Shown here one piece after another: positions 782 to 57,396 of a DNA stretch of 64,000 nucleotides. The position numbers and the translations under genes were made by a program. The stretch's first letter is position 1. Each line of letters starts with the position of its first letter. Source of the stretch: an uncultured Elusimicrobia bacterium (GTDB taxonomy: Bacteria > Elusimicrobiota > Elusimicrobia > Elusimicrobiales > UBA9959); the NCBI GenBank assembly GCA_903879915.1, contig CAIRNJ010000091.1:95718-159717 (forward strand), written 5' to 3'. The notes beneath the pieces were generated by a model, which was given only the letters and a program-made list of their open reading frames with translations, was not told where the DNA came from and did not search any database.

Positions 782-4106
<3,325 letters not shown>

Positions 4107-4419
4107 CTGCCGTCCGCTGTCATTTGAGCCGGAGGCTTAAAGAGGGAATAGGCGGTCGGAATATCGGGAGAGCGCGCAATGTCCGTTAAACTTCCGCATA
4201 CGCATGGTGCTTTTGTCTTGAGGCAACGGTGAAAATAGGCCTTTTAGTCCTGCGAGATATTCTCTTTATGCTCAGGTGCTCCGCTTTATCCCGCCCCGCT
4301 GTCCCGATAGCCTAACGTTAGCTAAAGCACTGACCCGATTATTGCTAAAATAGCAAGGAATAAGCTTGCGATAGCAGCCCTTATGTTCATTACAGCTCAT
4401 CAGCCCCACGGAGGGAACC

Positions 4420-7505: not shown

Positions 7506-7693
7506 AGGTTTAACGCTTCCTGAGCTTTAAGAACGGACCGCTTCGAGAACATGCGCGGCCGAACTATCGTGTTAAGGATAATTTACCTTACTTTCAGGCG
7601 GTTACCATGAGGCAGGGGAACCAGAACGGGACTTTTTTTTGGCCCAGGAGCGGCGGCTGAATTAAAACAACTATCTTTAAACCTTAAGTTTAA
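7506..7693 (-). promoter_or_regulatory. Type-1 upstream cassette, copy B (lipase-like operon)
   Basis: P0 at 7677..7693 (TTAAAC-N5-GTTTAA variant), core at 7643..7660, CATGAGG at 7606..7612 and AATTTACC at 7580..7587. Linkers are 16/30/18 nt and the leader to the ATG is 74 nt. Confidence 0.7.
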
Positions 7694-7878
7694 AACCGGG
7701 GGTCTTTCAGATCGTTCCGGCAAGCCTGAGGCCGGTAAAGATATGGTAAAAGAGTGCCCGGCTGAAGGTGGGCATAATAATTAAAAAACAGGAACTAAAA
7801 GCACTTAGCTTTGGCGCAGGCTGGAGGTAAACTATAAGCAGGAAGCAGTATCCAGATTCGGGTGTCAACGGAGAGGCT

Positions 7879-8755: not shown

Positions 8756-9107
8756 GGGGGCGAATAGGTTCGACGTTGACTTGTTCTGTCAGATCAGCAG
8801 GCCATGGTTGACCAGGCCATGTAAAACAGGGTCAAAAACATAAAAGCCAACTCCAACGAGATGGCCTGGGCGCACGCTTAAGTGTGCCTCGCTTGTAGCC
8901 TACCCGCCTGAGCGGGCTATAAAGCGTTAAATTCAGGCTGCTGTCGTCAGGGGCGCGCTTCGTCCCGTGCCGGCTTAAGACAATACGGAGCTTGGCCGGG
9001 AATTGTCGTCCTGAACTAATCCCGGCCGAGACACACTCAGGGCTAAGCCTGTAGCGGTTCTGACAAGCTGTTAGCGGACCCGGGTGCGAATCCCGGCGCC
9101 TCCACCA
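8756..9107 (+). ncRNA. ssrA: tmRNA (transfer-messenger RNA)
   Basis: The 5' GGGGGCG pairs with the 3' CGCCTCC-ACCA, including the G3:U alanine identity pair. A T-arm GGACCCGGGTGCGAATCCCGG is present. The internal tag ORF GCC AAC TCC AAC GAG ATG GCC TGG GCG CAC GCT TAA encodes ANSNEMAWAHA. Confidence 0.9.
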
Positions 9108-9156: not shown

Positions 9157-9185
9157 TTGACCATAACGGAGCGGAGAGTTATAAT
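9157..9185 (+). promoter_or_regulatory. Sigma70-type promoter
   Basis: TTGACC (9157..9162), a 17-nt spacer, then TATAAT (9180..9185). Confidence 0.6.
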
Positions 9186-22532: not shown

Positions 22533-22715
22533 AGTTTTCTTTCTCTCCTTGATTTCCGTACTGTGTGCGTTACTCGTTCCGTCTTTGAAATCTCTTGTTA
22601 TAGTTTACCGCGTTCTGCGCCGGGCCGCCTGAGGCGGGGGAACCAGCGCGGCCCGCTTATTCGACCCAGGAGCGCCGGCTTATGGAAAACGCCTTTCGTT
22701 AAGCCGCCGGCTTAA
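22533..22715 (-). promoter_or_regulatory. Type-1 upstream cassette, copy C (A1 + PLD)
   Basis: P0 at 22699..22715, core at 22665..22682 (one mismatch), CCTGAGG at 22628..22634 and AGTTTACC at 22602..22609. Linkers are 16/30/18 nt. Confidence 0.75.
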
Positions 22716-22729
22716 CCCGCCCGCCGGTC

Positions 22730-24958: not shown

Positions 24959-25140
24959 TTTTTTCGCCTTGCTTATCTGTTCCGTCCCGGGCGTGTGTTC
25001 CTAATCCGCTTTCTGCTTATAAGTAAAGTTTACTTCGCCCGCGGCCGGCTTCCCTGAGGCCGAAGGACCAGCGCTCGCCGCTTCTTCGACCCAGGAGCGG
25101 CGGCTTATAAAAAATGCTTTTAATTAAGCAGACGGCTTAA
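24959..25140 (-). promoter_or_regulatory. Type-1 upstream cassette, copy D (A2)
   Basis: P0 at 25124..25140, core at 25090..25107, CCTGAGG at 25053..25059 and AGTTTACT at 25027..25034. Linkers are 16/30/18 nt. Confidence 0.75.
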
Positions 25141-25237
25141 CAGGCGCGGGTGTTGCCGGGCGCCTGTCCGGGAGGGGGGATCATCCTATCGCCGGCCTGG
25201 GCGTGGTCAGCGGGGTATGGAGGTTTGTTCAGCGGCA

Positions 25238-27111: not shown

Positions 27112-27993
27112 TTATTTCACCAGCCGGAAGCCTACGTAGAAGCTGCCCTGCTTCATGTAAATATAGCTGCGGAAGTCGGTGCGCAGGTATTCGTTGTCGC
27201 TGCTGTAGAAGGAATTACCGCGGATGACATTGTCGCCGTTGGCGGCGCCTTTAACCGCGCTGCCGTCGGCGGGAGCGCCGGCGTACGATTCCTTATATAT
27301 GTCCTGCGTTATCTGCCAGACGTTGCCGGCCATGTCGCACAGGCCCTGCTTGGTGTTGCCCGCGGGCTTGGAACAGACGGGCCCGGTGCCGTTGTTGCCG
27401 CCGCCTACGCCGTTCTCTACGCCGTCGTATACCGCCCTGGCGTGGGTAACGGGCTCGTTGCCCCAGGGATATTTATTGCTCTTGCCTTCGCTCCGGGCGG
27501 CGTATTCCCATTCGGCCTCGGTGGGGAGCCTCGCGCCGGCGAACTTCGCGTAGTCGTTCATTTGCTTCCCGTTCAGGCAGTTCATCGGGTATTTCTGGTC
27601 GTTGGGAGTATGCCAGTTGCAGTTGAAGCTGTAGTAAGTGACCGGGGGCGTCGTGCACTTCCCTGCGTTAACGCACTGCGCGTATTGCTCCACGGTTACC
27701 ACTGTTTTGGCCATTTTAAAGGTATTAATACTTACCTCGTGTACCGGCCTTGTGTTATTAGACCCCGGGGCGCTTTTCTCTGCCCCCATCTGGTACTTGC
27801 CCCCGTGAATGGTCACCCATTTTATCTGCGCCGCGCCGGCGGCGTAAGCCGCCACATCCGGGTTAAATATATCTCCGTCCGCGTAGGTGGACGCCTCGAT
27901 GTTCCAGGCTTTCACCGCCAGGTCCCCGAATTCAGCGGCAACTGCGTTGCCGGCCAAACCTAACATCGCTATCAGCATCATCGCTTTTTTCAT
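27112..27993 (-). CDS. Secreted FGE-sulfatase (SUMF1/EgtB-like) domain protein, paralog 1
   Basis: CDMAGNVWQITQD, NVIRGNSF and a C-terminal GFRLVK follow the FGE-sulfatase domain pattern. The signal peptide is MKKAMMLIAMLGLAGNAVAAE. Confidence 0.75.
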   Translation of the reverse strand: MKKAMMLIAMLGLAGNAVAAEFGDLAVKAWNIEASTYADGDIFNPDVAAYAAGAAQIKWVTIHGGKYQMGAEKSAPGSNNTRPVHEVSINTFKMAKTVVTVEQYAQCVNAGKCTTPPVTYYSFNCNWHTPNDQKYPMNCLNGKQMNDYAKFAGARLPTEAEWEYAARSEGKSNKYPWGNEPVTHARAVYDGVENGVGGGNNGTGPVCSKPAGNTKQGLCDMAGNVWQITQDIYKESYAGAPADGSAVKGAANGDNVIRGNSFYSSDNEYLRTDFRSYIYMKQGSFYVGFRLVK

Positions 27994-28173
27994 TTGTGGT
28001 TTCTCCTTGGCTATTCTGACCTCTGGGTTTTATTGCCGCCTTCAAAACCTCACACTATAAGTTTACCGAGTTTTCCGTCGTGTTTCCTGAGGCAGAAGAA
28101 CCAAGGCCGCGCGCTTATTTGACCCAGGAGAGCCGGCTTACAAATACTGCTTTTAATTAAGCCGCCGGCTTAA
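27994..28173 (-). promoter_or_regulatory. Type-1 upstream cassette, copy E (FGE-domain gene 1)
   Basis: P0 at 28157..28173, core at 28123..28140 (two mismatches), CCTGAGG at 28086..28092 and AGTTTACC at 28060..28067. Linkers are 16/30/18 nt and the leader is 66 nt. Confidence 0.75.
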
Positions 28174-28177
28174 CCGA

Positions 28178-28231
28178 AATAGAGTGACACACAACTTAAT
28201 TGCTGTCAATTAAGTTGTGTGTCACCCTATT
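28178..28231 (-). terminator. Long palindromic hairpin, family copy 1
   Basis: Perfect 19-bp arms GTGACACACAACTTAATTG (28184..28202) and CAATTAAGTTGTGTGTCAC (28207..28225) with loop CTGT. It lies downstream of the 28289 gene stop and has a T-rich flank on the minus strand. Confidence 0.6.
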
Positions 28232-28288: not shown

Positions 28289-29131
28289 TCAGGCAGTATG
28301 CTGCACGCCATCCAGGCCGGTCCAGCTTAAACCGCCGTTCGCGTTCAGCGTGAAGTCTTTTGCGTAGCGGCTGATCAGCAGGCCGTTGAGGAAGAGGTCG
28401 TGATAGCTGTCGAGCGCGGCCGCATCTCCAGTCCTGGCGGCCACGCTGAACTTGAGCACGTTCGAACCTACCCGGCTGGTGGCGCCGCCGGTGTTCCTGT
28501 AGAGGGTGTTGAACGTGTCCAGCCAGGCGGTTGTTCCGGTGAACGCCGACACTTGATATTCCTTCACACCGGAACCGATCCGGTCCGTTTTTAGGCCCTC
28601 ATTCCTGTAGAGGTAGCCGTAAGTGTCCTTCCAGACCACCTGCCCGGTGAAGGCGTTTACATCCCGGCTCTCTGCGCAAGAGCCTATCCGCGAAGAGTTC
28701 CTGTAAAGGTATTTGTAATGGTCCGTCCAGACCACGTCCCCGGTGAAGGCAGCTATGCCGTATTCCTTTACCTCGCGGCCCAGCCTGTCCGCGTTCCTGT
28801 AAAGGTTGCCGGCCCTGTCGGTCCAGGCGGCGTCGTTGGTGCAGCCGGTCTTGAAGGCCACCGCTCCGCGGCCGAGCAGGGTATGCCCGTTATAGATGTC
28901 GCCTTTGTTGTCTATGAATACCGGCGGCTTATAGCAGGCGGACTGTGGCGGAGCCGGCTGCGGTACGTCCTGCTGGTGCGGCGTCTGGAAGGAATGCCCG
29001 ATATCGGCGGCGCCGCACTTTAAGAGCCCCGCGAAGCTCGCCGAGGGGCCATCAAACGCCGCCCCCGGAGCCGCGGCGTAAGCGCCCGTAGCTGCCGCGA
29101 GCGCGGCAATGATAATCAATATTTTTTTCAT
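28289..29131 (-). CDS. Secreted repeat protein (about five ~38-aa repeats, LYRN...G..V..F.V..FTG...W.D)
   Basis: Signal peptide MKKILIIIAALAAATGAYAA. The repeated units NLYRNADRLGREVKEYGIAAFTGDVVWTD, YLYRNSSRIGSCAESRDVNAFTGQVVWKD and others suggest a beta-propeller-like architecture. Confidence 0.6.
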   Translation of the reverse strand: MKKILIIIAALAAATGAYAAAPGAAFDGPSASFAGLLKCGAADIGHSFQTPHQQDVPQPAPPQSACYKPPVFIDNKGDIYNGHTLLGRGAVAFKTGCTNDAAWTDRAGNLYRNADRLGREVKEYGIAAFTGDVVWTDHYKYLYRNSSRIGSCAESRDVNAFTGQVVWKDTYGYLYRNEGLKTDRIGSGVKEYQVSAFTGTTAWLDTFNTLYRNTGGATSRVGSNVLKFSVAARTGDAAALDSYHDLFLNGLLISRYAKDFTLNANGGLSWTGLDGVQHTA

Positions 29132-29313
29132 TTTGTACCCCTTATCCGGAAAGCATACGGCGAACTTTGCCGCTTGATCAAAGTTTACAGTATCTCCGGA
29201 GTGTTCCGATTGAGGCGAAGGGTAAGCGCGGCGAGGTTATTCGGACTATAACGGGTGAGACGCCACGGAGGGCGTTTTAGGAACAATTATTGTTGCCAAG
29301 GCGCGGGCGCCCG

Positions 29314-30150
29314 TCAGAAAGACTTAACTTTGCGCATGCGCAGCTTTATCAGGTAGAAGCCGGTATTCTGGCCGGCCGAATGCGTGGCGTAGGCGTTGGC
29401 GCCGTCCATGGCCTGCGCCAGCTGCAGCCGGAAGTTGCTCATGGCGCCCTCTTCGGCGCGCACCAGCTCCAGCCGCTCGAAGAATTCCGGCCCGCCGGCT
29501 TTTTCCAGGTAGCCGTTGATGGTTTCCAGCTGGGCGCCCATGCCCTCGAGCCGGCCGGGGTAGGTGAAAAATTTGCCCTGGTGGCGGCACTTGTATTTGC
29601 CAGCCGGGGTTTTAAGGAGCAGGCCGGCTTTCTTCAGCGACTCAAGCGCCTTCGCGACGGCTTTGGGCTCCAGCTCGAGTTTCCCGGCCAGTTCCTCCGG
29701 GGACCAGGTGCCCCCGTCGCTGCACAGCGCTTCGGCGCACCAGTAGACGGCCTCGCTGGCGGCCATAGCGGTGAATTCCTCCGGGCTTAAATGCACCGAG
29801 GAATGGGCCTTCATCCAGGTCATGGCGCCGGGCCCGGCGCCGGCCGCGGACTGGCCGGAAAAAAGCGGGGCTAGTATGTAATCCGCGCACCTGCCGCCGC
29901 CCAGCGAGTCGCGCAGGTAGCTCATAAGCAGCTCCCTGGCCTCGGCCTGCGTCGGCAGCAGCCGCAGGGCCAGCATGATCCGCTCCAGCCACTCGGGCTT
30001 GGGGACGGACGCTCCCTTCTCGATGCGCATGTAGTGGACGAAGGTGAAAGCGAAGTGCTTTCTGCCGCCGTTGCGGTGGTAGAACTTGTAGGCGGTGTCG
30101 AAGCCCGCGGCCGACCTGGCCTTTATAAGGTTTTCGTGGAAACTCAGCAT
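29314..30150 (-). CDS. Putative HTH/winged-helix transcription regulator, paralog R1 (TIGR02147/DUF4423-like)
   Basis: The N-terminus LIKARSAAGFDTAYKFYHRNGGRKHFAFTFVHYMRIEKG and the central PEELAGKLELEPKAVAKALESLKKAGLL are collinear with 41850..42710, 42723..43604 and 50896..51765. Confidence 0.55.
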   Translation of the reverse strand: MLSFHENLIKARSAAGFDTAYKFYHRNGGRKHFAFTFVHYMRIEKGASVPKPEWLERIMLALRLLPTQAEARELLMSYLRDSLGGGRCADYILAPLFSGQSAAGAGPGAMTWMKAHSSVHLSPEEFTAMAASEAVYWCAEALCSDGGTWSPEELAGKLELEPKAVAKALESLKKAGLLLKTPAGKYKCRHQGKFFTYPGRLEGMGAQLETINGYLEKAGGPEFFERLELVRAEEGAMSNFRLQLAQAMDGANAYATHSAGQNTGFYLIKLRMRKVKSF

Positions 30151-30233: not shown

Positions 30234-30283
30234 TAAAGTGACACAGAACTTAATTGTTGCCAATTAAGTTCTGTGTCACTTTA
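30234..30283 (-). terminator. Long palindromic hairpin, family copy 2
   Basis: Arms GTGACACAGAACTTAATTG (30238..30256) and CAATTAAGTTCTGTGTCAC (30261..30279) with loop TTGC. It matches copy 1 except for one position, which is changed in both arms. It lies right after the S8 stop and ~85 nt upstream of the R1 start. Confidence 0.6.
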
Positions 30284-33666: not shown

Positions 33667-33827
33667 AATCCTCCCAGTAATTTTGGCGCATAATGCCTTA
33701 CGCCATTAAAACTATTTTATGGAATCCTGCGAGTCCCCAATAGAGGCGTTGGGCCCAGCGCCTTTTTGTTTATTGACCCAGGAGGAACGGCTTATTAAAA
33801 GCGGCTTTAGTTAAGCATCCGGCTTAA
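33667..33827 (-). promoter_or_regulatory. Type-1 upstream cassette, copy F (His/Gly/Pro-rich gene); divergent
   Basis: P0 at 33811..33827 (TTAAGC-N5-GCTTAA), core at 33777..33794 (diverged), ATAGAGG at 33740..33746 in place of CCTGAGG, and ATTTTATG at 33714..33721 (TAAAAT hexamer). Linkers are still 16/30/18 nt. Confidence 0.6.
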
Positions 33828-33840
33828 CAGAATAGCGGCT

Positions 33841-45272: not shown

Positions 45273-45423
45273 TTACTGTTTCCTCCTCTGTCTGAAACCT
45301 CTTACTACAAGTTTACCCCGTTTCTCCGCTGCTTTCCTGAGGCCTAAGAACCAGAACGGCCGATTTCTTTGACCCAGGAGCGGCGGCTTAGCTGAATAGT
45401 ATTTCGTTAAGCCGCGGGCTTAA
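45273..45423 (-). promoter_or_regulatory. Type-1 upstream cassette, copy I
   Basis: P0 at 45407..45423 (overlapping the stop codon 45420..45422 of the upstream gene), core at 45373..45390, CCTGAGG at 45336..45342 and AGTTTACC at 45310..45317. Linkers are 16/30/18 nt and the leader is 37 nt. Confidence 0.75.
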
Positions 45424-46070
45424 TACCCCGCGGGCGTAAATACCGCCGGGGCGTTCTTCCGCGCTTCGCCGTAAGACTCCTGCCTGCTCCGGCACGTCTG
45501 CAGCGCCGCGTCAAGGCTTGCCGGGGCGCCGAAGACGGGGCTTACGGCCCTGTCCAGGCACACCAGCGGGGCGAGAGGTTCTGAAGTGCCGCCGCAAAGC
45601 TGAAGGCCGTATTCGAGGGTAAGCGAGTAACCGCCGATGGTCTGGGATACGGTCCGATCAAGGCAGGTGACCGGGGCTTCCGCAACGGAGGTGCCGCCGC
45701 ACAGCTGAATGCCCTGCTTAAGGTTAAGTCTATACTGGTACGCTATTGAATGCCCCAGCGCTTTTTCAAGGCAGGCCAGCGGCGCTTCCGGTTTTGCGCT
45801 GCCCGCGCACAGGTTGAAGCTGTCGTCGCGGGTAAGGTCCCGGCCCCCGACGGGCCTGGTCTTCGCCGTATCTACGCAGTTCTGCATGGTGAACGTCTGT
45901 TCCGCCGGCGCCGCTGCATCGGCATAGGATTTGGCTTCGGCCGGCCGAACCAGCCCAGCGATAGCCGAAACCGGGGTATTAGCTTTCAATGAACCGCGCG
46001 CGCTTTCACCCGCGTAAGAGATATTTATCCCGAATATTACCGCCGCCGCCGTATATAGTGATCTTTTCAT
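45420..46070 (-). CDS. Secreted Cys-repeat protein, family C paralog 1
   Basis: Signal module MKRSLYTAAAVIFGINISYAGESARGSLK. Three units of the type LC.G....APL.CL..A are present. Confidence 0.6.
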   Translation of the reverse strand: MKRSLYTAAAVIFGINISYAGESARGSLKANTPVSAIAGLVRPAEAKSYADAAAPAEQTFTMQNCVDTAKTRPVGGRDLTRDDSFNLCAGSAKPEAPLACLEKALGHSIAYQYRLNLKQGIQLCGGTSVAEAPVTCLDRTVSQTIGGYSLTLEYGLQLCGGTSEPLAPLVCLDRAVSPVFGAPASLDAALQTCRSRQESYGEARKNAPAVFTPAGY

Positions 46071-46085
46071 AGTAGCCAGCTCTCC

Positions 46086-46292
46086 TTACAGACAATATGC
46101 GATGGTCCCTGCGCCCATGTCGGAGCCGTTCTGATCGAACGGTCCCCAGAAGAACAGGTCCTCGCCGTCCGTCCCTTCCACTTCAGCTGCAGTGGGCGCG
46201 CTGGCGGGAACTATTAGTCCGGTGGGGGCCGCTTTCTGCGCCGGCTTTGAAACCATCCTGGAAGTTATATTTAACAGTCCGGAACTTTTCAT
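46086..46292 (-). CDS. Small hypothetical protein (68 aa), no signal peptide
   Basis: It directly follows a full cassette (J) and has an AAGGAGGG Shine-Dalgarno. The sequence is Ala/Pro/Gly-rich and ends in ...AYCL. Confidence 0.4.
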   Translation of the reverse strand: MKSSGLLNITSRMVSKPAQKAAPTGLIVPASAPTAAEVEGTDGEDLFFWGPFDQNGSDMGAGTIAYCL

Positions 46293-46447
46293 GCGCCCTC
46301 CTTGCCTGTCCGCCTTGGAAACCTCTCATTACTAGTTTACCCCGCGGGACGCCTGGCTTCCTGAGGACGAAGCCCCAATGCGGCGCGCTTATCCGGCCCA
46401 GGAGCGGCGGCTTATGAAAAGCGTATTCTGTTAAGCCGCCGGCTTAA
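46293..46447 (-). promoter_or_regulatory. Type-1 upstream cassette, copy J
   Basis: P0 at 46431..46447, core at 46397..46414, CCTGAGG at 46360..46366 and AGTTTACC at 46334..46341. Linkers are 16/30/18 nt. P0 starts 11 nt after the upstream CE4 stop. Confidence 0.75.
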
Positions 46448-46458
46448 CCGCCGCTTTA

Positions 46459-49110: not shown

Positions 49111-49287
49111 CTGGTTCTCCTTATCTTCTGTACGGGCCGGGGCTTGTTCCAGGCCTCAAAACCTCACAATATAAGTTTACCGCGGTTTTTGCCGGATTAC
49201 CTGAGGCCGAAGAACTAACGCGCGCGGCTTATCCGGCCCAGGAGCGGCGGCTTATCAGCGCCGCCTTTCGTTAAGCCTTTGGCTTAA
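49111..49287 (-). promoter_or_regulatory. Type-1 upstream cassette, copy K
   Basis: P0 at 49271..49287 (TTAAGCC-TTT-GGCTTAA), core at 49237..49254, CCTGAGG at 49200..49206 and AGTTTACC at 49174..49181. I counted the linkers base by base as 16/30/18. Confidence 0.8.
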
Positions 49288-49410
49288 CGCTGTCGGGCGC
49301 CGGACAATAACCTGTAATTGTAGCGGGGTACAGCTCCGCCCGTGACAAATACTTAACACAACCATAGTGGTGCTATTGGGATTTGTTTTATTAATGGCAG
49401 ACAAGCAAAC

Positions 49411-49439
49411 TTGACAATGTATAACTTAAGGTATACAAT
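49411..49439 (+). promoter_or_regulatory. Canonical sigma70-type promoter
   Basis: TTGACA (49411..49416), a 17-nt spacer, then TACAAT (49434..49439). It lies ~160 nt upstream of the response-regulator ATG. Confidence 0.65.
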
Positions 49440-49602: not shown

Positions 49603-50052
49603 ATGCTGAAAGTAATGGTGGTTGATGACGAAAAAGACACTGTCTGCCTTGTGAAATACCTGATGGAGCGTGAAAAGCTGGAAGTTGTTGAAGCCAGCAA
49701 CGGGCTTGAAGCTTACGCGCGTCTTACCTCCGGCACCGCGGCCCTGAGGCCGCCCGACGCTATAATTCTCGACGTTATGATGCCTGAAATGGACGGCTAC
49801 ACTTTTCATACCAAGCTGCAGGAAACGGAGGGGTTGCAGGATATCCCTATCGTTATCCTGAGCGCCAAAGATAAGCTGCGGGAGATGTTCTCGTCCTCTT
49901 CCAATATCTTCGCTTTCGTGGAAAAACCGTTCGAGGCCAAAACGCTGGTGGACACGGTGAAAGCCGCCATGGACAGCAGAAAAAGCAGAGGTTTTGATAC
50001 CCTGAACAACCCCGCCAACAGCGGCAGAATGATAAAGCCGCCGCTGAATTAA
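49603..50052 (+). CDS. Single-domain response regulator (CheY-like receiver)
   Basis: VVDDEKD, ILDVMMPEMDG (phospho-acceptor Asp), LSAKD and VEKPF are present. There is no output domain. Confidence 0.85.
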   Translation: MLKVMVVDDEKDTVCLVKYLMEREKLEVVEASNGLEAYARLTSGTAALRPPDAIILDVMMPEMDGYTFHTKLQETEGLQDIPIVILSAKDKLREMFSSSSNIFAFVEKPFEAKTLVDTVKAAMDSRKSRGFDTLNNPANSGRMIKPPLN

Positions 50053-50895: not shown

Positions 50896-51765
50896 TCAGT
50901 CCTTGGGGAGCAGCTGGAAGATGCCGGCGTCGACCATATAGATGGCTGACGCCTGCCTGTTCTCTCCGGAGTCGGCGTAGATGGCGGCCAGCTCCACGAA
51001 TTTATCCATGTGCTGGCGGTAGATATCCAGGTTGGCCCTCGACATACGGATGGTTATCCGTCTCGTATCCACCCGGCCGGCTTTCTTCATCCACTTCTCC
51101 AGGTGTCCCAGCAACGCGGCCTTCACCGGGGCGGTAGCCGGCGTCGCGGGCAGCAGCTCCACTACTTTCGCCGCGTATTCGGAGCGCGTTTTATCATTGG
51201 TAAACTCAGCTATGCCCTGGGCCGCGAACGTTCTGAGGGTTTTCCTTATCAGGTCGGGTTTGAAGCCCGTGGCGTTGGATAATTCGCGCACCGTTACCCA
51301 GCCCGTGGTGTTGAACAGATAATACTGGCAGAGGAACGACACCATGTCGCGGGCGCATACTTTCCATTGTTCCAGCGTAAGATTGGCGGTGCGCTGCGCG
51401 AGCGCTTTTTGTGTCGCGGCTTCCGCCAGCTCCCTGCTGGGGAGGTCCTCGTCCGCGGCGCCGGCTGCCGCCGGGGCGGACAGGGAATCGAGCAGTTCGT
51501 CCGAGCCCGACAGCGCTTTGAAATAGGCCCGGATCAGCTCCTGGCCCCGGGGGGAATCCTGTTCCACGCCCAGCGCGGCTATTATCGCTTTCAGGCGCCA
51601 GCTCCTGGGCAATTTCTTCCCGTGCTCCGTGTTCCAGTAGGTCATCAGGCTGAAGCCCAGGCTTTTTTTCCCGCCTACGCTGTTATAGAACTGGTGCGCG
51701 CTGGAGAAGCCCAGCTCTTTCCTTATCCTGGCCAGTACGCTGCCGAAAGCTTTTGAATTATTCAT
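50896..51765 (-). CDS. Putative HTH/winged-helix transcription regulator, paralog R4
   Basis: MNNSKAFGSVLARIRKELGFSSAHQFYNSVGG... and WVTVRELSNATGFKPDLIRKTLRTFAAQGI are present. Its start codon is 21 nt from palindrome P0 of divergent cassette L. Confidence 0.6.
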   Translation of the reverse strand: MNNSKAFGSVLARIRKELGFSSAHQFYNSVGGKKSLGFSLMTYWNTEHGKKLPRSWRLKAIIAALGVEQDSPRGQELIRAYFKALSGSDELLDSLSAPAAAGAADEDLPSRELAEAATQKALAQRTANLTLEQWKVCARDMVSFLCQYYLFNTTGWVTVRELSNATGFKPDLIRKTLRTFAAQGIAEFTNDKTRSEYAAKVVELLPATPATAPVKAALLGHLEKWMKKAGRVDTRRITIRMSRANLDIYRQHMDKFVELAAIYADSGENRQASAIYMVDAGIFQLLPKD

Positions 51766-51785
51766 TCGGCAATTATAACAAATAG

Positions 51786-51969
51786 TTAAACCACGGGTTT
51801 AGGAAAATGCGTTATCCCTAAGCCGCCGCTCCTGGGCCGTAATACGGGGCGGCGCTGGTTCCGCGGCCTCATGTGGCCGGTCCGCCAACGGAGTAAACTA
51901 TAGTAAGAAGTTTTGAAAGCCGCGCGGCCGGACAGCCGGAGCGGAACATAAATAAGGAGAGCAACTAAC
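51786..51969 (+). promoter_or_regulatory. Type-1 upstream cassette, copy L (the only plus-strand copy)
   Basis: P0 at 51786..51802 (TTAAACC-ACG-GGTTTAG), core TAAGCCGCCGCTCCTGGG at 51819..51836, CCTCATG at 51867..51873 and AGTAAACT at 51892..51899. Linkers are 16/30/18 nt and the leader is 70 nt. Confidence 0.75.
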
Positions 51970-54506: not shown

Positions 54507-54535
54507 TTGACAGACGTAATTGCGCGCTATACAAT
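54507..54535 (+). promoter_or_regulatory. Canonical sigma70-type promoter
   Basis: TTGACA (54507..54512), a 17-nt spacer, then TACAAT (54530..54535). It lies ~50 nt upstream of ATG 54587. Confidence 0.65.
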
Positions 54536-54586: not shown

Positions 54587-55672
54587 ATGAAACGGATAAA
54601 TATAGCGGTCTTTGCTGTTCTGGCGGCTGCGGGCGCCTGGATAGTTCCCGGCATAAGTACAGCTTCGGAGTATGTTCCTCCGGCCGGCCTGCGTGACGCC
54701 GTTGCCGATAACGGCGGGCAGGCGATGCAAAGTCTGCCTAAGGCAGCGCTGGAAGGTCCCGCCGCCCCCAGAGTTACCCCACCCTCTCCCAAAAAAGGAG
54801 CTATTGAGGTTCCGGAACATAAGGTGCTGAAAATATATTCGAATAAACCTCTCCCGGAGGCAAAGATAGAAGAGGATAAAAAGAACGTGACGGTCTGGGT
54901 CAACCCCGACTGCAGCAACAAGAACTGCGAGGTGAAAGCGGTCAGGTTCGCCTCCTGGGATTACAGGATCACCGCCCAGGGAGAGCTGTCTTTCGCCAGC
55001 GGCTTTTCGGCGCATTACAGGACCGATACGGTCCCGACCCTGGAGAAGTACGGTTTCGTGCAGTGGATCAAAGGCTGCGTTTTTGACTCCGAGGTGGAGA
55101 ACGGGAAGCTTAAATACACCCACGCTTACTCGCGCCCCTACTGGCAGCATGGGACGGAGGAACAGGACCACTACGCCAGTTTCCATCATCCGGTGCTGGC
55201 GCTGGACAGCGTGGACGCCGATCCCGTGTACGCCAGTTCGCCCGGCGTGCCGCACCCGGGCGGCTACAAATGGAACCGCGTCAGGGGGTCATTAGCGAAT
55301 GACTCGATGGTGCGTTATTTTAACGAAAAGCCCGTGGTGCCGGAGCTGTACGTTACCGACTATCCCTCCACTTCGTTCACTCACACTCTCGGCGGAGTGA
55401 AGCTGGCCAAGAACACCTCGCTGACTTTCCGCACCTGCTTGTACAGGATAGCCGATATCCCGCAGGTGACCGCCCCGGAAACGGACGTTTTCCCGGGCGC
55501 GCTGGTCTGCTACGACTGGAGCTCGTCGCATATCTATAACCATACCGCCAAAGTTTTCGAGAAGTGGGACAGGCTGCATCCGGAATGCGCGCGAAGCCTG
55601 GCCGAGATAGAAGCGGAAAAGAACGCGCCCGCTCTTCAGGGGAAATCCATTATTCGGGACATGGAAAAATAA
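54587..55672 (+). CDS. Secreted hypothetical protein
   Basis: Signal peptide MKRINIAVFAVLAAAGAW and an AGGAGAAAA Shine-Dalgarno. I recognised no domain. Confidence 0.6.
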   Translation: MKRINIAVFAVLAAAGAWIVPGISTASEYVPPAGLRDAVADNGGQAMQSLPKAALEGPAAPRVTPPSPKKGAIEVPEHKVLKIYSNKPLPEAKIEEDKKNVTVWVNPDCSNKNCEVKAVRFASWDYRITAQGELSFASGFSAHYRTDTVPTLEKYGFVQWIKGCVFDSEVENGKLKYTHAYSRPYWQHGTEEQDHYASFHHPVLALDSVDADPVYASSPGVPHPGGYKWNRVRGSLANDSMVRYFNEKPVVPELYVTDYPSTSFTHTLGGVKLAKNTSLTFRTCLYRIADIPQVTAPETDVFPGALVCYDWSSSHIYNHTAKVFEKWDRLHPECARSLAEIEAEKNAPALQGKSIIRDMEK

Positions 55673-55833
55673 ATATTCCCGCCGCCTGCCAGCCCAGGGC
55701 CGCTACGCCGGCCATATAGTATTTAGTATTTCTCCTTAAAGTCCGGACAAGTCCGCGGCGGGGCGTCCCGCCATCCCGCACGCTACGTATAAATAAAAAC
55801 GCTCCTCAGCGGCGCCGCCGCTGGTTGCGTATA

Positions 55834-55997
55834 GTGCCCTTTCAGGGTACTAAAACTCTCTTATTCATACGAAGGCCGGCGTAAGCCAAAAAACTTTCCT
55901 GCCGGGTCCGGCGCCTCTTATCGCGCGCCGGGGAACAAGGTAGACTTATATTAAGAAGTTAGGAGATTCCCGGAAAGCCGTAATAAAGGAGAGCAAT
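55834..55997 (+). promoter_or_regulatory. Type-2 upstream cassette, copy 1
   Basis: Hairpin GTGCCC-tttca-GGGTAC at 55834..55850, then 23 nt, then GGCCGGCGTAAGCCAAAAAACTTTCCTGCCGGGT...GCCTCTTA..., then TAGACT at 55941..55946. It aligns without gaps to 63208..63320. Confidence 0.6.
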
Positions 55998-57367: not shown

Positions 57368-57396
57368 TTTACAAAAGAATATGTCTGTGATATACT
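57368..57396 (+). promoter_or_regulatory. Sigma70-type promoter of the FG-GAP/C1/C11 operon
   Basis: TTTACA (57368..57373), a 17-nt spacer, then TATACT (57391..57396). Confidence 0.6.

Follow-up and report, generated by a model that had tools for sequence, protein, structure and literature searches.

How are genes transcribed that stand behind the pentamer GCCTC and, 23 nt further on, the hexamer TAAACT? The question is raised by positions 27994–28173 of the 64,000-nucleotide stretch of DNA analyzed here (the window), an interval that corresponds to copy E of a recurrent element, from the start codon to an upstream palindrome. The pattern GCCTC-N23/24-TA[AG]A[ACT]T has 14 matches in the window as compared with 0.41 ± 0.71 in dinucleotide shuffles, none of the 100 shuffles reaching 14, and each of the 14 matches has an ORF downstream in the matching orientation. 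By this shuffled-background count, made for the window only, the motif reported in the preliminary description is real. The two parts proposed there do not form a promoter by themselves: GCCTC-N23-TAAACT is the core, and the downstream end, of what sequence comparison indicates to be a rigid promoter module of ~115 bp that precedes dozens of secreted-protein operons in uncultured Elusimicrobia. The copies in the window are as follows.

3993–4107, minus strand: copy A, before lacZ (GH2); TAGAAT with a 24-nt spacer; palindrome variant GTTAAACC..GGTTTA
7580–7694, minus strand: copy B; TAAATT
22602–22716, minus strand: copy C; TAAACT
25027–25141, minus strand: copy D; TAAACT
28060–28174, minus strand: copy E, whole module; palindrome 28156–28174, block B 28123–28140, GCCTC 28089–28093, TAAACT 28060–28065
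28053 and 27993, minus strand: approximate inferred transcription start and ATG, respectively, behind copy E
27112–27993, minus strand: first gene behind copy E, secreted, with an FGE-sulfatase domain; begins MKKAMMLIAMLGLAGNAVAA
29182–29297, minus strand: copy L, a divergent version; palindrome AACAAT-A-ATTGTT at 29280–29297; GCCTC-N24-TAAACT
33714–33828, minus strand: copy F; TAAAAT
38328–38442, minus strand: copy G; TAAACT
41541–41655, minus strand: copy H; TAAACT; divergent from the regulator gene at 41850–42710
45310–45424, minus strand: copy I; TAAACT
46334–46448, minus strand: extra type-1 copy, TCCTC-N23-TAAACT; faces a small ORF of ~68 aa from 46291 and then a gene at 45420–46070
49174–49288, minus strand: copy J; TAAACT
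51785–51899, plus strand: copy K; TAAACT; palindrome variant GTTAAACC-N3-GGTTTA; divergent from the regulator paralogue at 50896–51765
55833–55946, plus strand: type-2 copy; palindrome AGTGCCC-N4-GGGTACT ~80 nt upstream of GCCTC-N23-TAGACT
63208–63320, plus strand: type-2 copy; palindrome GTGCCCC-N3-GGGGCAC ~80 nt upstream of GCCTC-N23-TAGAAT

All hexamers agree with those first listed, including TAGAAT and the 24-nt spacer of the lacZ copy and the two type-2 sequences. The statement that the type-1 spacer is exactly 23 nt holds apart from copy A and has to be amended for copy L, where it is 24 nt as well. Similarly, GCCTC is found in every type-1 copy originally listed but not in one that was overlooked and reads TCCTC; counting this one, there are 15 copies in 64 kb.

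From upstream to downstream, the module comprises the palindrome GTTAAGCC-N3-GGCTTAAC, block B (TAAGCCGCCGCTCCTGGGYC), block C (CTGGTTCYYNGGCCTCAGG), 18 variable bases and GGTAAACT. If transcription starts 7 nt after the hexamer, as we infer in numbering positions here, the palindrome occupies −121 to −103; block B, TAAGCC-GCCG-CTCCTGGG, extends from −87 to −70; the end of block C, GCCTCAGG, from −40 to −33 with GCCTC at −40 to −36; and TAAACT from −12 to −7. The distances between blocks are identical in all type-1 copies of the window, and in copy L the palindrome lies ~81 nt from GCCTC, the same distance as in type 1. Among 41 aligned copies, mean pairwise identity is 0.91 in block B, 0.84 in the −10 hexamer, 0.80 in block C and 0.75 in the palindrome as compared with 0.42–0.55 in the spacers and 0.35 in the 5′ UTR; conserved blocks between such diverged segments point to selection and not to recent duplication. 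The gap between GCCTC and the hexamer is strictly 23 nt in 38 of 40 copies and 23 or 24 nt in distant relatives. Evidence for protein binding is strongest at the palindrome and block B, which lie far upstream and are absent from the preliminary description.

The limits of the element near −35 are narrower than proposed. The sequence TGGTTCNNNNGCCTC is exact in seven copies of the window and has one mismatch in two, and AGG(G/A)AA after GCCTC is conserved weakly. Relatives whose regulator (see below) is 48–56% identical keep the palindrome, CCTCCTGGG, GCCTC, the N23/24 spacer and TAAACT/TAGACT, and have lost TGGTTC. Because GCCTC(n)GG alone is kept in these distant relatives, the 18-nt site suggested before, TGGTTCYYNGGCCTCAGG, is too long. 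The conserved GAGGTTTY described after the hexamer occurs in many close copies and is missing from the distant ones.

The view that the cassette genes form a promoter class apart from the canonical TTGACA-17-TAnAAT promoters of the same window is borne out. The latter are present at the coordinates quoted for them (TTGACC-17-TATAAT at 9157–9185, TTGACA-17-TACAAT at 49411–49439 and 54507–54535, and TTTACA-17-TATACT at 57368–57396). In the module, all window copies have a TAnnnT hexamer (TAAACT, TAAAAT, TAAATT, TAGAAT or TAGACT) suited to a −10 element for the inferred start, and no TTGACA-like sequence lies 16–18 bp upstream of it; as reported, the position 17 nt upstream is AGGnAA, which runs into a variable segment with a mean pairwise identity of 0.42. 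The module is also not of the extended −10 type (TGnTAnnnT) because it reads (C/G)GGTAAACT, where −14 is G and −15 is not T; TGn is present in 18 of the 35 divergent regulator promoters. Instead, a conserved element that is a putative protein site stands at a strictly fixed distance from the −10 hexamer, just upstream of the expected −35 position and overlapping the −35 region, as in class II promoters. Inspection against consensus sequences gave no fit to other promoter types. For sigma54 (TGGCAC-N5-TTGC), the distance from the GG of TGGTTC to the GC of GCCTC is 3 bp too short, and the conserved hexamer would fall downstream of the start; for ECF promoters (GGAAC-like −35, 16–17 bp, CGT-like −10), nothing is conserved 16–17 bp after TGGTTC; and sigma28- and sigmaH-type spacings do not fit.

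A half-site, T[A/T]A[G/A]CC, is present three times in each copy: in both arms of the palindrome and, 32 bp from the left arm (31 in a few of the 75 distinct copies), at the start of block B. At its second base, 66 of the 75 copies have A,A,A and nine have T,T,T, without a single mixed copy, and this concordance points to a single protein that would read all three sites. An RNA hairpin is no explanation for the concordance, because the third half-site pairs with nothing.

A protein of ~286 residues, which occurs in the window in four paralogous forms, is probably the reader of the three half-sites.

41850–42710, plus strand: candidate regulator, 286 aa; N-terminal XRE-type HTH and central MarR-like winged helix
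42723–43604, plus strand: tandem paralogue, 293 aa, 67% identical
50896–51765, minus strand: paralogue, 289 aa, 57% identical; leaderless; divergent from copy K; ATG 6 nt after TGTTATAAT, with the hexamer at 51772–51777 (minus strand)
29314–30150, minus strand: distant paralogue, 278 aa, 22–25% identical, with a TATAAT promoter and a Shine-Dalgarno sequence of its own; immediately before copy L

The AlphaFold2 model of the regulator has a mean pLDDT of 83.6 (80–90 over residues 1–90). Foldseek searches with the N-terminal domain give matches, at a probability of 1.0 and target TM-scores of 0.69–0.72, to the XRE-type controller protein C.BclI (0.72, rmsd 3.2 Å) and to a mycobacterial XRE protein, and in the model this domain appears to be a five-helix lambda-repressor-like (XRE) HTH; Pfam HTH_3 gives no match at E ≤ 0.01. 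The central domain resembles the MarR-family winged helices NadR, RovA and MarR (Foldseek probability 0.85–0.94, E-values 0.02–0.1, low TM-scores), and matches to Pfam MarR_2, HTH_24 and related families are all below gathering scores. The module is physically paired with genes for this uncharacterized two-domain predicted DNA-binding regulator: a complete divergent module is present at 27 of the 33 regulator loci with enough upstream DNA and at three of the three distant homologues that were looked up. In the predicted recognition helix, FVSYWD accompanies operators of the T,T,T class and FMSYWD those of the A,A,A class, and in the predicted recognition domain M/V and H/Y changes go together with the operator difference between TAAGCC and TTAACC or TTAGCC. 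This covariation is confounded by shared ancestry, and the T,T,T class may represent a single clade. The most divergent paralogue adjoins the most divergent module, copy L. Elsewhere, a 69%-identical homologue of this paralogue is followed by an AAC-N7-GTT palindrome and GCCTC-N23-TATACT; for two further homologues (L071 and L072, 56–58% identity), the downstream module is unclear or absent, L071 having GCTTC-N23-TACACT only.

The regulator genes themselves appear to be leaderless because their ATG follows their own −10 hexamer, TATACT or TATAAT, by 6–7 nt in 34 of 37 cases. A remnant of such a start, TGATATACT-N6-ATG, lies near copy H at 41661–41678. The lacZ gene has the same leaderless geometry, its ATG being 7 nt after the TAGAAT of copy A without a usable Shine-Dalgarno sequence, and together with the regulator genes it independently supports the assignment of the −10 element. 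From this comparative evidence, leaderless transcription from −10-only promoters appears to be routine in the lineage.

These features are best explained, with a probability of roughly 0.6, by a regulator-dependent promoter that has no −35 element and whose core, GCCTC-N23-TAAACT, lies within a larger DNA module of fixed geometry. RNA polymerase with the housekeeping sigma factor would recognize the −10 hexamer, and a sequence-specific protein at GCCTC(A)GG, just upstream of and overlapping the −35 position, would stand in for the −35 contact in a class II-like manner. The ~286-residue protein would bind the three in-phase half-sites through its XRE-type HTH; with its MarR-like winged helix, it is also the prime candidate for the activator at GCCTC(A)GG, although this assignment of domains to blocks is provisional. 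A point against the model is that CTCCTGGG and GCCTCAGG are separated by 37 bp, or 3.5 helical turns, so that a domain bound at both would face opposite sides of straight DNA. The regulator gene would usually be transcribed divergently, from its −10-only promoter into a leaderless mRNA, and the same palindrome covers −39 to −21 of that promoter so that the regulator probably represses itself. The proposed activation would turn on many operons, which encode secreted hydrolases and exported proteins of no assigned function. We regard this as a new regulon and not as a new kind of transcription machinery.

The preliminary description had left the choice between an activator and an alternative sigma factor; activator dependence is favored here and a candidate protein is named, whereas the sequence alone neither supports an alternative sigma factor nor rules against one. 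Several features count against the favored reading. The regulator gene adjoins only about one module in four to six, the near-identical type-1 operators could not tell the several paralogues of the window apart, and nothing ties the regulator specifically to GCCTC. Because GCCTC is kept where the palindrome differs, in the type-2 copies and copy L, it may be read by a common factor other than this regulator, possibly a sigma factor. In several copies, moreover, the palindrome comes immediately after the stop of a co-oriented upstream gene and could also act as a transcription insulator. A sigma factor that read GCCTC(A)GG as a −35-like element and TAAACT as −10, leaving the palindrome and block B to a separate regulator, would explain the strict N23 spacing, the fact that GCCTC and the hexamer are the sole elements common to type 1, type 2 and copy L, as expected for a common core-recognition factor, and the consistent difference between TAAACT and the TATACT/TATAAT of the regulator genes. 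We consider it unlikely because the gap of 23 bp is 5–7 bp beyond any sigma70-family class known to us (16–19 bp for housekeeping and 15–17 bp for ECF and sigma28 types), the sigma54 and ECF consensus sequences do not fit on inspection, and TAGAAT (lacZ), TAAAAT or TATACT in some copies are ordinary TAnnnT −10 hexamers. Among ~50 ORFs of the window scanned with Pfam and NCBIfam, there was also no sigma-factor gene or domain and no recombinase gene. It is somewhat less probable still that GCCTC(A)GG is a surrogate −35 at 23-bp spacing that is read by an unusual sigma factor, or by the regulator as a MotA-like factor for −35 replacement or sigma appropriation; if so, Elusimicrobia would have a second, orthogonal promoter grammar dedicated to the secretome.

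Two other readings dispense with promoter recognition as the reason for conservation, and both have little probability. In favor of a transcribed cis-regulatory RNA (a 5′ leader or a 3′ element) or a structured single-stranded DNA site, the palindrome folds as a hairpin, in which copies A, B and K have compensatory G:C to A:T changes and some relatives have G-T wobbles; it also often directly follows an upstream stop codon. This reading is very doubtful, as RNAalifold with 10 copies gives no structure beyond that hairpin (covariation term −0.18 kcal/mol) and two trivial 3-bp stems, no T-tract follows the hairpin, and the unpaired third half-site varies in step with both arms. Moreover, the leaderless ATG of the divergent regulator is ~20 nt from the palindrome in regulator-linked copies, and the lacZ ATG is so close to its hexamer that on that side the module stays outside the transcript. 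The 23-nt spacer does not exceed shuffled sequence in self-complementarity (mean MFE −3.18 as compared with −3.11 kcal/mol, mean z −0.05) and thus contains no copy-specific hairpin or operator of this kind; a long-range stem between CTCCTGGGCC and GGCCTCAGG, both sides of which are invariant and without covariation, is not selected by RNAalifold; and the only Rfam match in the window at gathering thresholds is tmRNA at 8756–9107, not a known cis-regulatory RNA. Slightly more remote is a mobile repeat that carries a promoter, of the MITE or REP type or a recombination site for cassette shuffling, with conservation that reflects spread. The number of copies in 64 kb would suit it, as would copy L, which together with its regulator and effector genes is bracketed, like an inserted unit, by two near-identical perfect palindromes of 42 bp. 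Against it, conservation is block-wise with saturated divergence between the blocks, there are no terminal inverted repeats, target duplications or, in the ORFs scanned, recombinase or integrase domains, the copies are always oriented towards a gene, and other species have orthologous copies at these same positions (copy J corresponds to locus L006, K to L058, and H to L014 and L029).

The module has a narrow distribution. There are 75 distinct copies, and all but one chance match come from Elusimicrobia genomes or metagenome contigs that contain the regulator gene; a DNA pattern scan of GTDB species genomes gave one chance match and 21 true loci, each of them in an Elusimicrobia MAG. Modules of type 2 or the L type were not found outside the window by nhmmer in the fetched loci, which were chosen for type 1. 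The module always faces a gene, at 17–154 nt (median 66), and by a heuristic prediction 60 of 73 downstream ORFs have a signal peptide. In the window, the genes include S8, trypsin-like, C1 and C11 peptidases, phospholipases, a deacetylase and FGE-sulfatase-domain proteins. Hardly any Elusimicrobia have been cultured, and to our knowledge nothing is known of the regulation of their transcription; a literature search on Elusimicrobia and promoters gave nothing relevant. The module provides a concrete predicted regulon, dozens of operons for exported proteases, lipases and proteins of no assigned function, and the regulator family provides candidate master regulators with an operator code that has natural specificity variants. 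It overturns no general principle of bacterial transcription, but it can guide the prediction of co-regulated secretomes from Elusimicrobia MAGs and may serve as an orthogonal promoter/regulator pair.

The regulator family is so far named only in Elusimicrobia, where it is annotated only as hypothetical. It is similar in size to the DUF4423/TIGR02147 family of Fibrobacter succinogenes, Bdellovibrio and others, which is likewise a multi-copy paralogous family, and there are weak Pfam matches to DUF4423 for three window paralogues and precomputed PF14394 matches for several homologues. The window proteins nevertheless score 17.4 and 20.6 bits (17–21) as compared with a gathering threshold of 30 for PF14394. 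No function is described for DUF4423, and a literature search on DUF4423/TIGR02147 gave one incidental mention. The middle promoters of phage T4 (MotA box at −30, sigma appropriation by AsiA) are similar, by analogy only, in combining a normal −10 with a non-sigma element and a dedicated protein that replaces the −35 contact; here the element is further upstream (−40 to −33), no AsiA-like partner is known and the putative regulon is chromosomal rather than that of a phage. With the C proteins of restriction-modification systems (C.BclI, C.AhdI and C.PvuII), the regulator shares an XRE-type HTH, the N-terminal structural match to C.BclI and a palindromic operator that overlaps the −35/spacer region of its own gene, suggestive of autoregulation, and C-protein operons are also leaderless. 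It differs from them in its length of ~286 residues, which include a MarR-like winged helix and a C-terminal domain besides the HTH, in half-sites and spacing unrelated to C-boxes, and in its linkage to dozens of secreted-protein operons in place of restriction-modification genes. In comparison with class II activator-dependent promoters, which have a CRP/FNR-type site near −41.5, the module has a non-palindromic site, reaches −121 and includes two more conserved blocks at fixed distances, and has a candidate activator without a cNMP or FNR fold, for which activation is a proposal. It nevertheless has in common with them a good −10 hexamer and no −35 element (weak or absent in class II), a fixed conserved element at about −52 to −33 from the inferred start, with GCCTCAGG as its invariant part, and a site that is shared by many operons.

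The motif GCCTC-N23/24-TA[AG]A[ACT]T has 14 matches in the 64-kb window as compared with 0.41 +/- 0.71 expected from dinucleotide-preserving shuffles, none of 100 of which reached 14, and every match is upstream of an ORF and in the same orientation as that ORF. The preliminary description, whose range (27994-28173) corresponds to copy E (28060-28174, minus strand), had held that this motif and its hexamers recur before genes and that the cassette genes form a distinct promoter class; the recurrence is borne out by this count, and the class is real. Its hexamers and spacers are as listed except that the spacer of copy L, a divergent version, is 24 nt and that one type-1 copy was missed:

46334-46448, minus strand, extra type-1 copy, which reads TCCTC instead of GCCTC

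The four canonical sigma70-type promoters used for contrast were found where they had been placed. The two best, at 49411-49439 and 54507-54535, have identical hexamers (TTGACA-17-TACAAT); the former leads, through a long leader of ~160 nt, to a stand-alone response-regulator receiver gene (49603-50052), and the latter leads to 54587-55672, which encodes a secreted protein without a known family.

Alignment of the copies revealed that the two-part motif, although real, makes up no more than the downstream end of a far longer conserved element, a module of ~115 bp. Read toward the gene, it comprises:

palindrome GTTAAGCC-N3-GGCTTAAC, the first part
15 semi-variable bases (AAAG..TTTT), between the palindrome and block B
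block B, TAAGCCGCCGCTCCTGGGYC(AAATAA), after the semi-variable segment
~14 variable G+C-rich bases, between blocks B and C
block C, CTGGTTCYYNGGCCTCAGG, then 18 variable bases
GGTAAACT, after the 18 variable bases, often with TATAnnRTGAGGTTT next
variable 5' UTR (hexamer to ATG 17-154 nt, median 66), with an AAGGAG Shine-Dalgarno and then ATG

Across all type-1 copies in the window, the spacing between blocks does not vary. Mean pairwise identity over ~40 module copies is 0.91 for block B, 0.84 for the -10 region, 0.80 for block C and 0.75 for the palindrome, as against 0.42-0.55 for the three intervening segments and 0.35 for the 5' UTR. Near-invariant blocks between stretches of saturated divergence indicate purifying selection on specific sites rather than the residue of recent duplication. 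The module lacks a -35 and has a G at -14, but the TG motif is absent. The palindromes of the type-2 copies (GTGCCC-N4-GGGCAC) and of copy L (AACAAT-A-ATTGTT) differ from that of type 1 and keep a distance of ~80-81 nt to GCCTC.

GTDB genomes, one per species, were scanned with a pattern that was built from blocks B and C and left the -10 free; of the 22 loci obtained, 21 belong to four MAGs of Elusimicrobia or Elusimicrobiales and one is a chance match in a deltaproteobacterial MAG. All true genome-scan copies that reach far enough downstream have a TAnAnT hexamer at N23 after GCCTC. With an nhmmer profile, the window and these loci contain ~47 full module copies, and the addition of metagenome loci brings the number of distinct copies to 75. 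The window, with a G+C content of ~60%, is therefore assigned to an uncultured Elusimicrobia genome, and ENA/NCBI contigs carry proteins 100% identical to window proteins.

Sixty of 73 distinct copies precede an ORF that has a Shine-Dalgarno and an N terminus passing a simple signal-peptide test, and several of the remaining 13 ORFs have a delayed hydrophobic segment. The products of window operons under the module are:

S8, trypsin-like, C1 and C11 peptidases; phospholipases C and D; polysaccharide deacetylase
alpha/beta hydrolases, L,D-transpeptidase, FGE-sulfatase-domain proteins and many family-less proteins

Taken whole, the window is a secretome island, with these peptidases, phospholipases, deacetylase and L,D-transpeptidase, an APP1-like phosphatase, the FGE-sulfatase-domain proteins (two in all) and ~20 exported proteins without a Pfam family. 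The extra type-1 copy is associated with a small ORF of ~68 aa (46085-46291, minus strand; MKSSGLLNITSRMVSKPAQKAAP...GTIAYCL), which has an orthologue in a locus of another species (L014) and is followed by a gene at 45420-46070; similar N termini (LLNLSS..SPAPK) stand ahead of a delayed hydrophobic segment at copy G and in relatives. The exception among the driven genes is lacZ (GH2, copy A), with its ATG 7 nt past TAGAAT and no usable Shine-Dalgarno (3985-3998, minus strand); the sole GGAGG precedes the first ATG by 17 nt, and the mRNA appears to be leaderless.

The window carries the candidate regulator as four paralogues:

41850-42710, regulator paralogue, first of the four
42723-43604, regulator paralogue, 67% identical
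50896-51765, regulator paralogue, 57% identical
29314-30150, regulator paralogue, 22-25% identical

At six genome-scan copies, a homologue of 41850-42710 is arranged divergently, with its ATG ~20 nt from the palindrome and preceded by TGnTATACT-N6, an arrangement also seen for copy K and 50896-51765. A metagenome scan with the regulator protein alignment gave 37 distinct loci, 34 of which have a -10 hexamer 6-7 nt before the regulator ATG (6 nt in 32, 7 nt in 3; TATACT in 23, TATAAT in 7), a spacing that, judged from sequence, is the geometry of a leaderless mRNA. A complete divergent module by the strict pattern is present in 27 of the 33 regulator loci with sufficient upstream DNA, and a divergent module is found at all three distant homologues (48-56% identical) looked up singly. 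The loci of these three keep the palindrome, CCTCCTGGG, GCCTC, the N23/24 spacer and TAAACT or TAGACT but not TGGTTC. Of the site previously proposed to overlap -35, GCCTC(n)GG is deeply conserved and the remainder is not.

More than 100 regulator homologues were found; the organism names given by the sources are all Elusimicrobia, and almost none carries a functional name. The AlphaFold2 model (mean pLDDT 83.6) has two DNA-binding domains: an N-terminal XRE-type HTH, with a target TM-score of 0.72 and an rmsd of 3.2 Å relative to the controller protein C.BclI, and a central domain modeled as a MarR-like winged helix, for which the corresponding Pfam matches are all sub-threshold. The most divergent paralogue has copy L immediately downstream, and a 69%-identical homologue of this paralogue elsewhere likewise has an AAC-N7-GTT palindrome and then GCCTC-N23-TATACT after it. 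Two near-identical, perfect 42-bp palindromes (28184-28225 and 30238-30279; GTGACACA(C/G)AACTTAATTG-N4-CAATTAAGTT(G/C)TGTGTCAC) flank a 2.1-kb unit of this paralogue, copy L and its gene (28289-29131). Their sole difference is compensated in both arms, and the arm has 4 matches as compared with 0.01 expected; the 69 loci retrieved contain none. The two palindromes may act as terminators or mark where an inserted unit ends. Beside the copy H palindrome, ~170 nt upstream of the intact ORF at 41850, TGATATACT-N6-ATGAAAACTTAAAGGCGTTCGG (41661-41700, plus strand) is what is left of a leaderless regulator start and resembles a 5' end that was duplicated and has since decayed.

Each module contains the hexamer T[A/T]A[G/A]CC at three sites, one in each palindrome arm and one at the beginning of block B. 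The block B half-site is 32 bp (31 in a few copies) from the left arm, a separation of about three helical turns. Base 2 is A at all three sites in 66 of 75 copies (with an occasional C at one site) and T at all three in 9, and no copy among the 75 mixes A and T. Since the third half-site has no pairing partner, an RNA or DNA hairpin cannot account for this concordance; on the sequence evidence, a single sequence-specific reader of all three half-sites can. In the predicted recognition helix, FVSYWD accompanies the T,T,T class and FMSYWD the A,A,A class, and, apart from one exception, a second regulator residue (SAH/SAY) tracks CCTGGG versus CCTGAA in block B; these associations, which are confounded by shared ancestry, are at most consistent with pairing. 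Both operator classes are present in one MAG, and locus L005 (contig CAIQNV010000072.1) has one of each, which suggests orthogonal paralogue-operator pairs. Its modules, near 155 (minus) and 440 (plus), are back to back and divergent, are of different operator classes (TAAGCC and TTAACC) and have no regulator gene between them.

Because the first transcribed base of the leaderless genes is ~7 nt after the hexamer, the +1 of the module was placed 7 nt after TAAACT, which in copy E would be ~28053 and coincides with the R of RTGAGG, a frequently conserved stretch. Relative to this inferred +1, the elements are located as follows:

-121 to -103, palindrome
-87 to -70, block B
-40 to -36, GCCTC
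-40 to -33, GCCTCAGG

The invariant GCCTC(A)GG is at the position where class II activators bind, and the strict N23 spacing points to a stereospecific contact with polymerase at -10. We infer regulator binding, activation and a domain-to-site assignment in which the XRE/winged-helix protein would occupy the palindrome and block B of a regulator-dependent promoter and perhaps also, via its second domain, GCCTC(A)GG. The palindrome spans -39 to -21 of the regulator's own promoter, which predicts negative autoregulation. In several copies, it comes right after the stop codon of a preceding, co-oriented gene; it has no T-tract and may additionally insulate against read-through. Separately, (A/G)TGAGGTTT is conserved 6 nt after TAAACT in most type-1 copies (~28045-28053 in copy E), the hexamer-N6-ATG spacing of the leaderless regulator genes, and is missing from distant relatives. 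It could be a leaderless mini-ORF or else merely a conserved initially transcribed region; such an ORF would encode just MRF before a stop codon in copies E, H and J, and in relatives it is longer and sometimes overlaps or shares frame with the main start.

Of the two options offered in the preliminary description, activator dependence is the better, and the interpretation given there is, as a whole, partly supported. Recognition by an alternative sigma factor, to which we give a low but appreciable probability, would fit the fact that types 1, 2 and L share GCCTC and the hexamer; on the other side, no sigma gene is present among the window ORFs scanned, and the 23-bp gap is, to our knowledge, longer than any known sigma70-family spacing. 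The module is unlikely to be a transcribed RNA element: RNAalifold backs one hairpin only, the spacers show no more folding than shuffled controls do, the positions of the regulator and lacZ start codons place the module outside their transcripts, and the Rfam match is limited to a tmRNA:

8756-9107, plus strand, tmRNA gene (Rfam RF00023, 135.7 bits)

A mobile repeat is similarly unlikely given the block-wise conservation, the retention of orthologous positions across species and the absence of terminal repeats.

The modules and their candidate regulators, from an uncultured phylum, represent a regulon and a regulator family that have not been described before. The system is not a new transcription mechanism; it would belong, as a new variant, with the regulator-dependent promoters that lack a -35.
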